A stretch of 64,000 bases of DNA from an uncultured Aliarcobacter sp. (lineage in GTDB: Bacteria > Campylobacterota > Campylobacteria > Campylobacterales > Arcobacteraceae). Where the stretch lies: positions 384,001 to 448,000 of the forward strand of contig CAXXLV010000001.1 of the NCBI GenBank assembly GCA_963664305.2. The letters are read 5' to 3'. Made by a program: the position numbers and the translations under genes. Under the pieces are notes generated by a model. The model saw nothing but the letters and a program-made list of their open reading frames with translations. It ran no database searches and was not told the DNA's origin. Shown one piece after another: positions 9,336 to 13,222 of the stretch; the first letter of the stretch is position 1, and each line of letters opens with the position of its first letter.

Positions 9336-9692
9336 CTATTTTTTTAACTCTTTAATTCTTGCAGCTTTACCTTTTAATCCTCTTAAGAAGTGAAGTTTAG
9401 CTCTTCTTACTCTTCCTTTTCTTACAACTTCAAAAGTTTTTAAAGACTCAGAGTATAATGGGAAAATTCTTTCTACACCAATTGAATTTGCACCGATTTT
9501 TCTAACTGTGAAAGTAGCATCAACACCATTTCCACTTCTAGCAATAACAATACCTTCAAAAAGCTGAATTCTTTTTTTCTCACCTTCTTTAATTTCAACA
9601 CCAAGTCTTACAGTATCTCCTGCTTTGAACTGTGGAATTTGTTTTTCTGCAATTTGCGCTGCTTCAAAGCTTGCAATGTATCTATTTTTCAT
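9336..9692 (-). CDS. rplS: 50S ribosomal protein L19
   Basis: PQFKAGDTV...[12 protein letters not shown]...GVERIFP...GRVRRAKL. True start is the ATG at 9692 (MKNRYI) with SD AAAGGG; the track's 9743 start is leader sequence. Confidence 0.98.
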
Positions 9693-9748
9693 TGTATTTC
9701 CCTTTGGCGAAAGTGCCCGCATTTGCAACTTGCGGGGTATCACACTTT
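9693..9748 (-). ncRNA. Putative structured cis-regulatory leader of rplS
   Basis: GC-rich hairpin AAAGUG-ugauac-CCCGCA-aguugcaaa-UGCGGG-CACUUU just upstream of the SD. Confidence 0.5.
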
Positions 9749-10437
9749 TATTTAAATTTTTTGTTTGTAACTAAACCTGGTCTAAAGTATTTTGTTTTGC
9801 AAATAGCCAGATTGGTTTTTAGGTCGGCAATTTTACTATGGTTTCCCTTTAAAAATTCTTTAACTACACTTAAATTTTGAAAATTTTCAGGTTTTGTAAA
9901 AGATGGTGCTTCAAGCATATTATTTTCATAGCTTTCAACATCCAAAGAATCAGCATTTCCAAGTACATTATCAACATTTCTAGAAATTGCATCTGCCATT
10001 ACTGTTGAAGCTAATTCTCCTCCTGTTAAAATATAATCACCAATACTAAATACTTCATTTGCATATTTTTCAATAACTCTTTCATCAATTCCTTCATATC
10101 TTCCACTTACAAATACAATATTTTTTTTCTTTGCTAATCTTTTTGCATCATTTTGTTTAAATGGTTTTGCAGCTGCTAGTGGAAATATAATATAGGCATC
10201 TTCATTTTTCTTTTTTATTTCATCTAAACAATCAAATAATGGTTGACAAAAAAGAAGCATACCTGCTCCTCCTCCTACAATTTGGTCATCAACCTTTTTA
10301 TGTTTATTAGTTGTAAAATCTCTTGGATTATAAAACTCGTAAGATATAAAATTTGATTCAACTGCTCTTTTTAAAATAGAATCTTGAAAATATGGTTCTA
10401 TAAGATTTGGGAAAAGTGTTACAAATGTAAATTTCAA
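9748..10437 (-). CDS. trmD: tRNA (guanine-N1)-methyltransferase
   Basis: [37 protein letters not shown] start. Confidence 0.97.
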
Positions 10438-10544
10438 AATAAAATCTAGCCTTTTTTAGTTGAAATATTAACATATTTATTTTTATTTATAATTAAGCAT
10501 TTATTCTTTACACTTCCCACCTTATTTAAATAAAAGGTTATTAC

Positions 10545-10889
10545 TTGAAATTACTAAACGGTTTTGGGAAAAAGTATTTTACACTTTCTTCAATACAAGC
10601 ACACTCTGTTGCACCAAAATTACATAGTATTGTTACATCTAGTAAAAATTATTTAAATAAAAAATTATCGATATCTTCAGAATGTGATGAAGAGGAAGAA
10701 TCACCTCCAAATCTTCAAGAAAATTTATCATTACCTATTTTATTAAATTCGAAACCTTGTCACTGTGATTGTTTTTTTAAAAGAAGAACTGCACTAGCAG
10801 TAAGTCTATTTAAATTTATTCCAAGATGTCCATTTTATTGCACATTTTTTGCTTTTAGAAGAACGGGTGTTCATCCTCCTATTACTTAA
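10545..10889 (+). CDS. Cys-rich upstream ORF/putative leader (arrest) peptide of metE
   Basis: A 114-codon open frame in very AT-rich DNA with SD AAAAGG, TTG start and a candidate -10 TACACT at 10509-10514. Contains CHCDC and CPFYC and ends RRTGVHPPIT, 62 nt before metE. Confidence 0.7.
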   Translation: MKLLNGFGKKYFTLSSIQAHSVAPKLHSIVTSSKNYLNKKLSISSECDEEEESPPNLQENLSLPILLNSKPCHCDCFFKRRTALAVSLFKFIPRCPFYCTFFAFRRTGVHPPIT

Positions 10890-10951
10890 TTAATCTAACA
10901 ACTTAACAAAAATATTTAAACAATAAATTATTAATAATCAAAGGATTAATT

Positions 10952-13222
10952 ATGCAAAAAAATTATGTAATAGGATTTCCAAGAATTGGAGAAAAAAGAG
11001 AACTTAAAAAAGTTTTAGAAAAATATTGGTCAAAACAAACTGATTTTAATGAAGTAAAATTTGTAGCAGAAAGTTTGAAAAAAAGACATTGGAATTATCA
11101 AAGAGAAGCAAAGATAGATTTTATCTCTTCAAATGATTTTTCATATTATGACAATATGTTAGATACATCTATATTATTAGGTGCTATTCCAAAAAGATTT
11201 GAAAACTTAAAAAATGAAGAACTATATTTTGCAATGGCAAGAGGAAATGACTCTTGTGTCGCAATGGAAATGACTAAATGGTTTAACACAAACTACCATT
11301 ATATTGTTCCTGAAATTTCAAAAGACACAATATTTAGATTAAATAGTAAAAAAGTAATTGAAGAGTACAAAGAAGCACTTGATTTAGGAATTAAAACAAA
11401 AATAAATCTAATTGGAGCAATAACATATCTTGGACTTTCAAAAAGTGTAGATAATAGTGATATTTTTTTACACATTAATAATGTAGTTGAAGTATATAAA
11501 GAATTATTGTTAGAAATTTCAAAACTAGATGATGAAATTATCGTTCAATTTGATGAACCATTATTTGTAAAAGATTTAGATACAAAAATTTTATCTTTAA
11601 TCAAACCAGTTTATGATGCCCTAGCTTTGGTTGCATCAAATATAAAAATAGTTGTAACAACATATTTTGAACATTCAAATGAAGCAACAAAAATATTAGT
11701 TAATACTCCAATTTGGGCATTAGGTTTAGATTTTATTCATGGAAATAAAAATCTTGAAGTTTTAGAACTTATCAAAAACTCAAATAAAATTTTAATTGCA
11801 GGAGTAATTGATGGAAGAAATATTTGGAAAAGTAATTTTCAAGATAAAGTAGAACTACTTGAAAAAATCTCAAAAACTATAAATAAAGAAAATATTATAG
11901 TTGGAACTTCTTGCTCACTTTTACATGTTCCATTTACTTTAAATTATGAAGAAAAATTAGATAAAGAGATAAAATCTTGGTTAGCATTTGCAAATGAGAA
12001 GTTAAAAGAGTTATCACTTGTATCTAAACAATTTTTTGACTTCAAACTAAATTTAGAAGAGTTATCTACAATAAAAAGAAATATTGAAGATAATAATCAA
12101 AGAAAGATTTCTTCAAAAATTCACAATATTAAAATTCAAGATGAAATAAAAAATCTTAAAAATTTTGAAAGAGTAGATAAGTTTCAAAATAGAATAAAAG
12201 TTCAAAGAGAATTTTTCAAATATGATTTTTTAACAACTACAACTATTGGTTCATTCCCTCAAACTCCAGAGATTAGAGAAAATAGAAAACAATATAAAGT
12301 AAATGCCATTTCAAAAGAGCAATATGAAAATGAAATCAAAAAATATATTGACGATTGTGTAGCTTTTCAAGATGAAATTGGACTTGATGTTCTAGTTCAT
12401 GGAGAACCTGAAAGAAATGATATGGTTGAATATTTTGGAGAATTAATGGATGGATTTGTATTTACACAAAATGCCTGGGTTCAATCTTATGGTAGTCGTT
12501 GTGTAAAACCACCTTTAATTTATGGTGATGTTTCAAGACCAAATCCAATGACTGTTGAGTGGATAAAATATGCTCAAAGTAAAACTAAAAAAGTTATGAA
12601 AGGTATGTTAACAGGACCAGTTACTATTTTAAATTGGTCATTTGTAAGAGATGATATATCAAGAAATGAAGTTGCAAAGCAAATTGCATTTGCTATAAAC
12701 AAAGAAGTAGATGATTTACAAAATGCTGGAATAAAAATGATTCAAGTTGATGAAGCAGCATTTAAAGAAGGTTATCCTTTAAGAGCTGAAAACATTAAAG
12801 CTTATGAAAATTGGGCAGTTGATAATTTCAAATTAAGTGTTAGTTGTGCAAAAGCAGACACTCAAATTCATACACACATGTGTTATAGCGAATTTAATGA
12901 CATTATTAAAACTATTGAAGCTATGGATGCTGATGTTATTTCAATCGAAACTGCACGTAGTGGAAATAGACTTTTAAAAATCTTTAAAGAAGTAGCTTAC
13001 AAACAAGAAATTGGTCCTGGAATTTATGATATTCATAGTCCTAGAGTTCCAAGTGTTGAAGAGATGGTGAAACAAATTGAAGCTTTAATCGAAGTTTTAC
13101 CAAAAGAACAATTATGGATAAACCCTGATTGTGGATTAAAAACTAGAAAATGGCCAGAAGTAAAACAAAGTCTAAAAAATATGGTTGAAGCAGTGAAAAT
13201 TGTTAAAGAAAAAAATTACTAG
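10952..13222 (+). CDS. metE: Cobalamin-independent methionine synthase
   Basis: GFPRIG, EMTKWFNTNYHY, TTIGSFPQT, HGEPERNDMVEYF, HTHMCYSEF and NPDCGLKTR (Zn ligands). Confidence 0.99.
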   Translation: MQKNYVIGFPRIGEKRELKKVLEKYWSKQTDFNEVKFVAESLKKRHWNYQREAKIDFISSNDFSYYDNMLDTSILLGAIPKRFENLKNEELYFAMARGNDSCVAMEMTKWFNTNYHYIVPEISKDTIFRLNSKKVIEEYKEALDLGIKTKINLIGAITYLGLSKSVDNSDIFLHINNVVEVYKELLLEISKLDDEIIVQFDEPLFVKDLDTKILSLIKPVYDALALVASNIKIVVTTYFEHSNEATKILVNTPIWALGLDFIHGNKNLEVLELIKNSNKILIAGVIDGRNIWKSNFQDKVELLEKISKTINKENIIVGTSCSLLHVPFTLNYEEKLDKEIKSWLAFANEKLKELSLVSKQFFDFKLNLEELSTIKRNIEDNNQRKISSKIHNIKIQDEIKNLKNFERVDKFQNRIKVQREFFKYDFLTTTTIGSFPQTPEIRENRKQYKVNAISKEQYENEIKKYIDDCVAFQDEIGLDVLVHGEPERNDMVEYFGELMDGFVFTQNAWVQSYGSRCVKPPLIYGDVSRPNPMTVEWIKYAQSKTKKVMKGMLTGPVTILNWSFVRDDISRNEVAKQIAFAINKEVDDLQNAGIKMIQVDEAAFKEGYPLRAENIKAYENWAVDNFKLSVSCAKADTQIHTHMCYSEFNDIIKTIEAMDADVISIETARSGNRLLKIFKEVAYKQEIGPGIYDIHSPRVPSVEEMVKQIEALIEVLPKEQLWINPDCGLKTRKWPEVKQSLKNMVEAVKIVKEKNY

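Follow-up and report, generated by a model that had tools for sequence, protein, structure and literature searches.

Cobalamin riboswitches classically act on metE and on btuB-type uptake operons, and the control of these genes by vitamin B12 is a textbook case of regulation by RNA. At the metE locus of an uncultured Aliarcobacter sp., a leader peptide gene occupies the riboswitch's usual place. The locus was examined in a 64,000-nt stretch (the window; positions 384,001 to 448,000 of contig CAXXLV010000001.1, GenBank assembly GCA_963664305.2), with the leader gene and the spacer behind it at 10545-10951, between trmD and metE. The leader belongs to a previously unnamed family of peptides found in front of metE and of B12-type operons, which together form an unusually interesting regulon. 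That it is a translated gene linked in cis to metE is close to certain, and comparison of its relatives indicates that it very probably acts as a cis-regulatory element. The reading that we favor, with somewhat better than even confidence, is that it is a Pro-Pro arrest-type leader through which metE and the uptake operons would share one, probably B12-responsive, mode of control.

The leader gene and its coding status

The trmD (9748-10437, minus strand) and metE (10952-13222, plus strand) genes flank an intergenic region of 514 nt with 24.5% GC, which contains one long open reading frame (ORF) at 10545-10889 on the plus strand, with a TTG start and 114 codons followed by a stop at 10887-10889. 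A Shine-Dalgarno (SD)-like AAAAGG (10532-10537, plus strand) sits 7 nt before the TTG, and the metE ATG at 10952 lies 62 nt past the leader stop on the same strand. The metE product (756 aa) scores 1024 bits against the TIGR01371 model for cobalamin-independent methionine synthase, above its cut-off of 929.95. The leader peptide has six Cys residues (in SEC, CHCDC and CPFYC), no internal Met, an acidic EEEESPP stretch, and the C-terminus RRTGVHPPIT. All of these features are in the sequence as a first-pass annotation of the window, made from the sequence alone, had described them. An ORF of at least 114 codons appeared in 4 of 20,000 shuffles of the 514-nt region (median longest 37 codons), and the remaining five frames of the leader stretch carry 6-15 stops each.

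The leader ORF is a genuine coding sequence whose protein product is under purifying selection. In a six-frame search across 61 related genomes, 32 of 36 other genomes of the genus carry the frame uninterrupted and at full length (60-91% identity), and six further families of the order give weaker matches. All 33 genus loci, this one included, retain the TTG start with a suitably spaced AAGG or AAGGAG before it. A codon alignment of 32 genus sequences (113 columns) has 65, 50 and 105 varying columns at codon positions 1, 2 and 3 respectively, and invariant residues are encoded by synonymous codons (Gly by GGT, GGC or GGA; Cys by TGT or TGC; Pro by CCA, CCT or CCC; Leu by CTT, TTA, TTG or CTA); this is as expected if selection acts on the peptide and not on RNA structure. 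Over 496 pairs the median proportions of synonymous and nonsynonymous differences (pS and pN) are 0.50 and 0.22, and the median ratio of the corresponding rates (dN/dS) is 0.27. The protein-level conservation on which the first-pass proposal of a functional peptide depended is thus present.

The peptide matches no Pfam family at E up to 10, has a chance match only in NCBIfam (E 0.11), and gives no usable match in the ESM Atlas. When 9500-12000 was scanned against Rfam (E up to 10), six unrelated families came up, each with E of at least 2.6, and no cobalamin or S-adenosylmethionine (SAM) model, which agrees with the initial impression that no such riboswitch is recognizable in the leader region.

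Linkage to metE across the Campylobacterota

A leader homologue is located directly 5' of metE at 31 of 33 genus loci (tblastn), the other two stopping at a contig edge, and the same is true of 6/6 significant loci from other families, where the neighboring gene is not trmD. A profile of 52 diverse leader members, run on 401 sampled genomes of the phylum, matched 205 of them; among the leader-type matches listed with a metE position, 52 of 54 lie on the same strand, 61-482 nt upstream of metE. The linkage that had been predicted from the single locus therefore holds within the genus, in other families and among the listed matches of the phylum. The protein database contains 685 leader relatives at E up to 0.01, and an exhaustive representative library contains 160 leader clusters. 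Among 120 listed relatives, all of those with a name are called 'hypothetical protein' and none has a Pfam domain.

The leader does not accompany every metE gene. We inspected 14 metE upstream regions from genera without a profile match; none has a riboswitch, two contain a divergent short leader, and 12 have neither an ORF ending in Pro-Pro nor an Rfam match (E up to 0.01), from which it follows that the metE genes of many lineages have no leader of this family.

Four wastewater RNA runs were compared with positions 10300-11400; in contigs from relatives, coverage is good over trmD and metE and thin over the leader. A 412-nt contig (X15) links the 3' part of a leader to the metE start of a relative whose spacer is shorter. 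Metatranscriptome contigs reveal neither where transcripts start nor how abundant they are, and the leader has diverged further than metE, so no conclusion is drawn on co-transcription or on a separate metE promoter.

Two of the individual loci have unusual arrangements. In genome G013 (L013:1981-3331) metE is cut after 224 codons and abutted by an insertion-like ORF of 229 aa on the opposite strand, and the leader is intact. In one genome of another family a tRNA gene (L022:2859-2944, plus strand) is immediately upstream of the metE leader, leaving no room for a long 5' untranslated region.

Anatomy of the peptide family

Family members divide into an N-terminal motif (G-F-G-K-x-Y-F-x-L-x-x-I-Q-A), a middle that varies and in most cases closes with acidic residues and Pro-Pro, and a C-terminal module of ~43 residues. 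The N-terminal motif, at residues 6-19 of the window's leader (G-F-G-K-K-Y-F-x-L-x-x-I-Q-A; 10560-10601, plus strand), is conserved in the 52 diverse members, with Y11 invariant and G6, F7, F12, L14, I17 and A19 each present in at least 90%. The acidic stretch and its Pro-Pro (residues 46-55; 10680-10709, plus strand) follow the majority consensus of the family and are not invariant within the genus. The C-terminal module, residues 70-112 (10752-10880, plus strand), runs from K-P-C-H-C-D-C (K-P-C-H-C-[DN]-C in the family) through a basic and aromatic stretch to R-R-T-G-V-H-P-P, corresponding to a family ending of [ST]-G-[ILV]-[AHS]-P-P, and C74, P111 and P112 are invariant in 52/52 members. 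The Arg residues of the leader C-terminus are six and seven residues before the first Pro. In other families there are also short metE leaders of 49-80 aa consisting of the C-terminal module alone.

Conservation breaks off sharply at the second Pro. The two Pro codons, CCT CCT at 10875-10880 (plus strand), are the proposed arrest point, invariant at the protein level and with varying codons, and they are followed in the window by a two-residue tail and a TAA stop (10881-10889, plus strand). Tails beyond the Pro-Pro differ among relatives in sequence and length; among 150 representatives listed, 83 have G-x-x-P-P, and in 52 of these 83 the tail is 1-6 residues long, with a few of up to 40. An AlphaFold2 model from the 52-sequence alignment has helices at 14-46 and 75-89 and no compact fold (predicted local distance difference test, pLDDT, 74; predicted template modelling score, pTM, 0.41), helix 14-46 being predicted with confidence (pLDDT 86-89).

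This anatomy bears unequally on the peptide as it was first interpreted. The conserved C-terminal Pro-Pro motif is borne out, x-G-x-x-P-P being the sharpest conservation boundary in the family. The emphasis on Cys clusters as a conserved core was largely wrong: of the Cys/His motif C-H-C-D-C at residues 72-76 only C74 is invariant in the 52 members, although His73 is common, and many congeneric species have CPYYD or CPYYT in place of CPFYC. The C-terminus had been expected to be more conserved than the N-terminus, and the two are equally conserved. Assignment to the RAPP/RGPP or DUF2946 class also falls away, since the motif is V-H-P-P and the peptide has no Pfam match.

A module of about tunnel length, an invariant Pro-Pro and an unconserved tail are together what marks known arrest peptides. 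This comparative anatomy gives good support to the peptide as a putative arrest-type leader, which would probably act through a pause at Pro-Pro.

Relatives in front of TonB receptor operons

The N-terminal part of the profile also matched the starts of 620-690 aa frames, which are TonB-dependent receptors whose own signal peptides carry the leader N-terminal motif. For most of them the best NCBIfam match is the vitamin B12 receptor, with 207-308 bits against an equivalog cut-off of 599.7. One family has the gene order receptor, leader, metE (L025, L049 and L050). In another, ORFs of 50-53 aa that share the N-terminal motif and end in [AN]-S-P-P are found 42-54 nt before such receptors, behind which lie BtuF/IsdE-like, ABC ATPase and BtuC/FhuB-like genes at 10 of the 13 loci read; the other three have an unresolved gap of ~2 kb and then a gene for a BtuF-like protein or for a membrane protein of 190 aa.

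Full-length leaders occur in the same position. Nineteen further leader loci were taken from genomes with a second full-length match or without metE; 5 are metE leaders and 14 have a TonB receptor directly downstream (gap -26 to 117 nt), and these 14 have the N-terminal motif, HCxC, and a C-terminal SPP or APP. The best match of their receptors is mostly the B12 receptor, and BtuF/BtuC-like genes come after the receptor genes. In genome G177 the leader is fused in frame to the receptor in an open frame of 724 aa (L095:3132-5303, minus strand), and one leader-headed operon (L105) includes CobQ, cobyric acid synthase, with 473.8 bits against a cut-off of 273. Given the leaders shared by the two settings, one peptide family heads both metE and B12-type receptor and transporter operons.

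The relationship between leader and receptor extends to the signal peptide. As a crude test of export we used the highest 10-residue Kyte-Doolittle mean within the first 40 residues, which is 0.83 in the window's leader, with medians of 1.17 in 10 genus leaders, 1.12 in 6 other-family leaders, and 1.23 in 10 receptor-type leaders, whose cores often contain Arg, Gln or Thr. The medians are 2.20 in 7 receptors starting with the motif and 2.26 in 7 ordinary receptor signal peptides. By this comparison the leader N-terminal motif appears clearly to derive from a receptor signal peptide that has since been made polar, and export of the leader peptide in the manner of CutF (see below) is doubted.

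Several other features of these operons were recorded. A membrane protein of ~190 aa recurs behind leader-headed receptors (L089:2218-2802, L101:3323-3910 and L105:3217-3792, and also in L067, L090, L095 and L102); it has no Pfam or NCBIfam match, and as a guess it is a candidate inner-membrane corrinoid transporter. In the L095 fusion the receptor's own signal-peptide-like stretch comes after the leader Pro-Pro; the fusion may be natural or may result from loss of a stop codon. A YcaO-domain gene (L092:6353-7501, plus strand) follows a leader-headed receptor and BtuFCD-like operon on the same strand. On contig 2 of the window's own genome (G000:C2), an ORF of 59 aa (L108:2328-2507, minus strand) closes 23 nt before a BtuB-like receptor of 633 aa at about 665192-667048. 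This ORF has a Lys-rich start followed by Y-F-S-F-F-G-I-L, which resembles the leader motif, has no C-terminal Pro-Pro or profile match, and may be a decayed or divergent receptor-type leader.

Cobalamin as the candidate signal

The cobalamin riboswitch RF00174, the only cobalamin-clan RNA model run genome-wide, was found in 0/35 genomes of family f15, sampled over 23 genera, and in 1/151 genomes of the phylum, namely the window's own. No cobalamin or SAM riboswitch was found at 16 other leader loci at the Rfam gathering threshold, so that none accounts for the leader region either here or at the other leader loci scanned, as the first-pass annotation had supposed for the single locus.

B12-dependent MetH is found in 135/401 genomes of the phylum, and the distribution of the leader by family tracks that of metH, family f11 excepted. 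The leader and metH are present, respectively, in 22/23 and 22/23 genomes of f1, 34/34 and 33/34 of f15, 8/8 and 7/8 of f17, 19/19 and 19/19 of f23, 4/4 and 4/4 of f4, 15/20 and 19/20 of f6, 0/7 and 0/7 of f13, 1/3 and 1/3 of f16, and 20/21 and 20/21 of genus g36. Among the signals listed in the first-pass annotation (zinc or cobalt, cobalamin, thiol or redox state, and Cys or Met status), cobalamin is the one that the comparative data favor and the most likely effector, and we give even chances to a response of the leader to B12.

A division of labor with the N-terminal module as B12 sensor and the C-terminal module as a bare arrest platform was considered, and is weakened by a metH-bearing genus that uses short leaders.

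Coupling of the leader to metE

The leader-metE spacer (10890-10951, plus strand) is G-free up to the metE SD sequence AAAGGA at 10940-10945. The same composition recurs at the 13 genus loci with short spacers, which total 495 nt with 0 G and 68 C when the last 12 nt of each are left out. A G-free, C-bearing and unstructured spacer would suit Rho loading, or re-initiation after the leader stop.

A hairpin that masks the metE ribosome-binding site (RBS) and is opened by a stalled ribosome was tried as a coupling device over 37 loci and rejected, with no consistent unmasking (median unpaired probability of the RBS 0.40 in the free RNA, 0.44 when a ribosome occupies Pro-Pro, and 0.40 for a control footprint). 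A role of the Pro codons as an anti-Shine-Dalgarno sequence also fails, the codons varying among CCA, CCT and CCC.

The absence of Met from the leader was noted at the outset, and the count of zero internal Met codons stands; as a property of a single sequence it is not significant (P ~0.11 at the window Met rate of 1.96%). In 150 leader representatives Met makes up 0.59% of residues, against 1.96% in the long ORFs of the window, and this family-wide scarcity fits a leader that can be read when methionine is short. Classical Met attenuation finds no run of Met codons here, the only terminator-like site being a palindrome within the ORF, and the spacer being G-free.

That palindrome, ACTGCACTAGCAGT, is 14 nt long, lies at 10788-10801, and is terminator-like on both strands, giving two terminator-like sites where shuffles lead one to expect 0.1; the codons under it differ from relative to relative, which makes its conservation unlikely. 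Upstream of the ORF, the hexamer TACACT first put forward as a -10 box is present at 10509-10514 (plus strand); as a promoter it gains nothing from the promoter scan, which does not list it and reports 4 sites with 5.7 expected from shuffles, i.e. no excess. Many species of the genus have long spacers (98-309 nt) with inserted palindromes (L002, L008, L013, L020 and L030-L042), for example GGTTCC...GGAACC before the metE RBS, or a repeated 'gttatctaca...tgtagagaat' hairpin, resembling small mobile or repeat elements.

Proposed mechanism and alternatives

We propose that the last ~43 residues of the leader, from the HCxC motif to the invariant Pro-Pro, would fill the ribosomal exit tunnel as elongation is paused or arrested at Pro111-Pro112, a few codons before the stop, and that the dwell time of the ribosome at Pro-Pro would set metE expression through the G-free spacer. 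Coupling could be via Rho-dependent polarity or via termination and re-initiation, a conserved RBS-hiding hairpin being less likely. The signal would most likely be cobalamin status, the leader doing the job of a B12 riboswitch for metE and the uptake operon. The N-terminal motif, as a former receptor signal peptide, may be the likeliest sensor or docking part, and a leader so poor in Met codons could still be translated in methionine-starved cells. It is conceivable, if rather unlikely, that the nascent peptide and the ribosome are themselves the cobalamin sensor, with a corrinoid at the tunnel exit altering the dwell time at Pro-Pro; contact might then be made, for example, via the invariant Cys74 and the frequent His73, or via the N-terminal motif.

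Several observations weigh against a B12-responsive arrest leader. The window's own genome holds a cobalamin riboswitch elsewhere, at G000:C2:150748-150950 (L045:1501-1703, plus strand; 83 bits). The long ORF that follows it has a hydrophobic stretch at its N-terminus and by its sequence resembles a CobN-type chelatase subunit, and a lone riboswitch in a phylum otherwise without RF00174 suggests horizontal acquisition. Family f11 has leader matches in 75/158 genomes and metH in 0/158; the three f11 leaders read (L070, L071 and L073) are the C-terminal module alone, with 49-92 aa, and because of these short leaders in a family without metH the module cannot be solely a B12 device. One metH-bearing genus also has short leaders without the N-terminal motif, and the sampled genomes are related, so that the co-occurrence counts of leader and metH overstate independence. 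The receptor, BtuF and BtuC matches all fall below their NCBIfam equivalog cut-offs, with IsdE (heme) or FhuB scoring as well or better in some cases, and for that reason some of the operons may serve heme or siderophore uptake. As to the arrest itself, the motif is V-H-P-P (in the family [ILV]-[AHS]-P-P) and not the proven RAPP/RGPP; at 114 aa the peptide is long for a leader, and its conserved N-terminal part could also belong to a free-standing protein; the hairpin result over 37 loci does not help; and the gap between leader stop and metE, 41-309 nt, is awkward for any single coupling model.

Of the alternatives, the one that survives best keeps the arrest-type leader and gives it a signal other than B12, such as a metal (Zn or Co on Cys/His), methionine, SAM or homocysteine, or thiol or redox state. 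MetE is a zinc enzyme. One Cys of the leader is invariant and His73 is common, f11 retains a short metE leader with no metH, CutF-like leaders sense metals (PMC9973294), and the transporter matches are below cut-off, IsdE beating BtuF in L068. The regulon, however, is the classical B12 set, with metE and BtuB/BtuF/BtuC-like operons shared and CobQ once included, and the phylum uses B12 enzymes yet has RF00174 in only 1/151 genomes. An FecCD permease with a class-A2 binding protein is presumably not a zinc-type transporter, which counts against zinc in particular, and attenuation by methionine would need a Met-rich leader, whereas this one is Met-depleted. A signal of this other kind is possible but unlikely.

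The leader might also be a free-standing small protein that is active after release, e.g. a corrinoid or metal chaperone or a regulator in trans, with Pro-Pro as the end of its fold. We consider this distinctly unlikely. Its length of 114 aa, a dN/dS of ~0.27 along most of that length, the confidently predicted long helix at 14-46, and annotation as a hypothetical protein in several public genomes are what such a protein would have, but no globular structure is predicted (pTM 0.41), no Pfam, NCBIfam or ESM Atlas family matches, and the tail after Pro-Pro is unconserved. Moreover, the gene is always immediately 5' of the one that it accompanies, on the same strand, its modules are lost freely (forms of 49-80 aa, and forms of ~50 aa with the N-terminal motif only), and in L095 it is fused in frame to the receptor.

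An exported nascent sensor of the CutF type would have a working signal peptide and be threaded through Sec, so that binding of B12 or a metal in the periplasm alters the pulling force and thereby the arrest. The degraded hydrophobic core (in the same crude test, 0.83 here and leader medians of 1.1-1.2, against 2.2 in real signal peptides), the Arg, Gln or Thr inside the core of many leaders, and the cytoplasmic location of MetE make this highly improbable, even though BtuB-like receptors of this phylum have signal peptides homologous to the N-terminal motif. The precedents are that CutF works in this way (PMC9973294) and that nearly all products of RAPP/RGPP upstream ORFs (uORFs) before TonB receptors are predicted to have signal peptides (PMC12992588).

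Finally, that the conserved entity is an RNA, a novel riboswitch or attenuator with the open frame as a by-product, can practically be dismissed despite the long leader region, its riboswitch-typical position and the terminator-like palindrome at 10788-10801, given that third positions vary in 105/113 columns against 50-65 at the others, that invariant residues use two to four synonymous codons (those for Leu differing at positions 1 and 3), that the frame stays open at 25-40% protein identity and from 0.28 to 0.57 GC, and that the palindrome codons vary among relatives and nothing matches Rfam.

Comparison with known systems

The closest parallel to the Pro-Pro arrest-type reading is CutF of Rhodobacter capsulatus (DUF2946), a small protein encoded on the same strand just upstream of the regulated gene, with a signal-peptide-like N-terminus, a central Cys/His motif and a Pro-Pro among the last 15 residues, for which stalling at the prolines is proposed to control the downstream gene (PMC9973294 and bioRxiv 10.1101/2025.02.05.636593). 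The rule set for CutF-like proteins, as given in PMC9973294, is a length below 150 aa, a C-terminal Pro-Pro, a signal peptide, a Cys/His motif and a downstream gene. The leader has 114 aa, P111-P112 of 114, C-H-C-D-C, and metE 62 nt downstream on the same strand; for the signal peptide, its N-terminus is homologous to receptor signal peptides, yet scores 0.83 against their median of 2.2 in the crude hydrophobicity test. It differs from CutF in having no detected sequence relation to it (no Pfam match at E up to 10), an N-terminal part apparently too polar for a working signal peptide, a cytoplasmic enzyme as its target, a regulon that points to B12 and not to copper, and no conserved RBS-hiding hairpin over 37 loci. 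The terms metE, cobalamin and B12 are absent from the main text of PMC9973294.

CruR of Bordetella pertussis and the RAPP/RGPP uORFs are similar in that an uORF with a C-terminal Pro-Pro precedes a TonB-dependent receptor, and CruR is reported to regulate independently of a Sec signal, via Rho-dependent termination (PMC9973294 and PMC12992588). Sister members of the metE leader family likewise precede TonB receptors, and the G-free spacer would suit Rho. The metE leader family is nevertheless separate, with the motif [ST]-G-[ILV]-[AHS]-P-P and no Arg at the RAPP position, and the searched text of these two papers does not mention a metE context. In Campylobacter jejuni, Ribo-seq identified MetL as a 20-aa leader of metB that is not a member of the metE leader family (PMC11955535); the searched part of its 17 supplementary files contains neither Cj1201 nor metE. 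No published leader peptide of this kind for metE or for a btuB or B12 operon was found in full-text searches of the literature (bioRxiv supplements excluded), in keeping with the first-pass remark that no such metE leader had been described.

The leader may also be set beside arrest peptides with other targets.

In SecM, ApdA and ApdP, the N-terminal part outside the tunnel modulates release. These peptides (see PMC7897499, PMC10951233 and PMC10987492) resemble the leader in having a conserved C-terminal arrest module that runs to a proline and is followed by a few unconserved codons. They monitor export or membrane insertion and control Sec and YidC genes, whereas the leader accompanies a biosynthetic enzyme and uptake genes. 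In TnaC, a ligand-dependent stall at the end of the leader ORF controls access of Rho to the spacer before the structural gene. TnaC differs in having 24 aa, a stall at the stop codon, and tryptophan sensed in the tunnel, whereas the stall point of the leader would be at Pro-Pro, two codons before the stop. If the arrest reading is correct, Pro-Pro arrest leaders of the CutF and CruR class would extend from metal homeostasis and secretion to cofactor and amino-acid metabolism, a new arrest motif would be available for studies of the ribosome, a family of 685 database proteins would gain a name, and a single regulatory peptide module would have been copied between operons to build a regulon.

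A last comparison is with the cobalamin riboswitch RF00174, which sits at equivalent sites, 5' of metE and of btuB-type operons, and presumably has the same role in physiology. The riboswitch is an RNA aptamer and was not detected at the leader loci scanned, whereas the metE leader is a translated peptide. The leader family is thus a testable candidate for control of the B12 regulon in the Arcobacter group and in sulfur-oxidising Campylobacterota, and, if a cobalamin-sensing nascent peptide is indeed at work, the Campylobacterota would have replaced the B12 riboswitch with a translated switch for both metE and the uptake operons.

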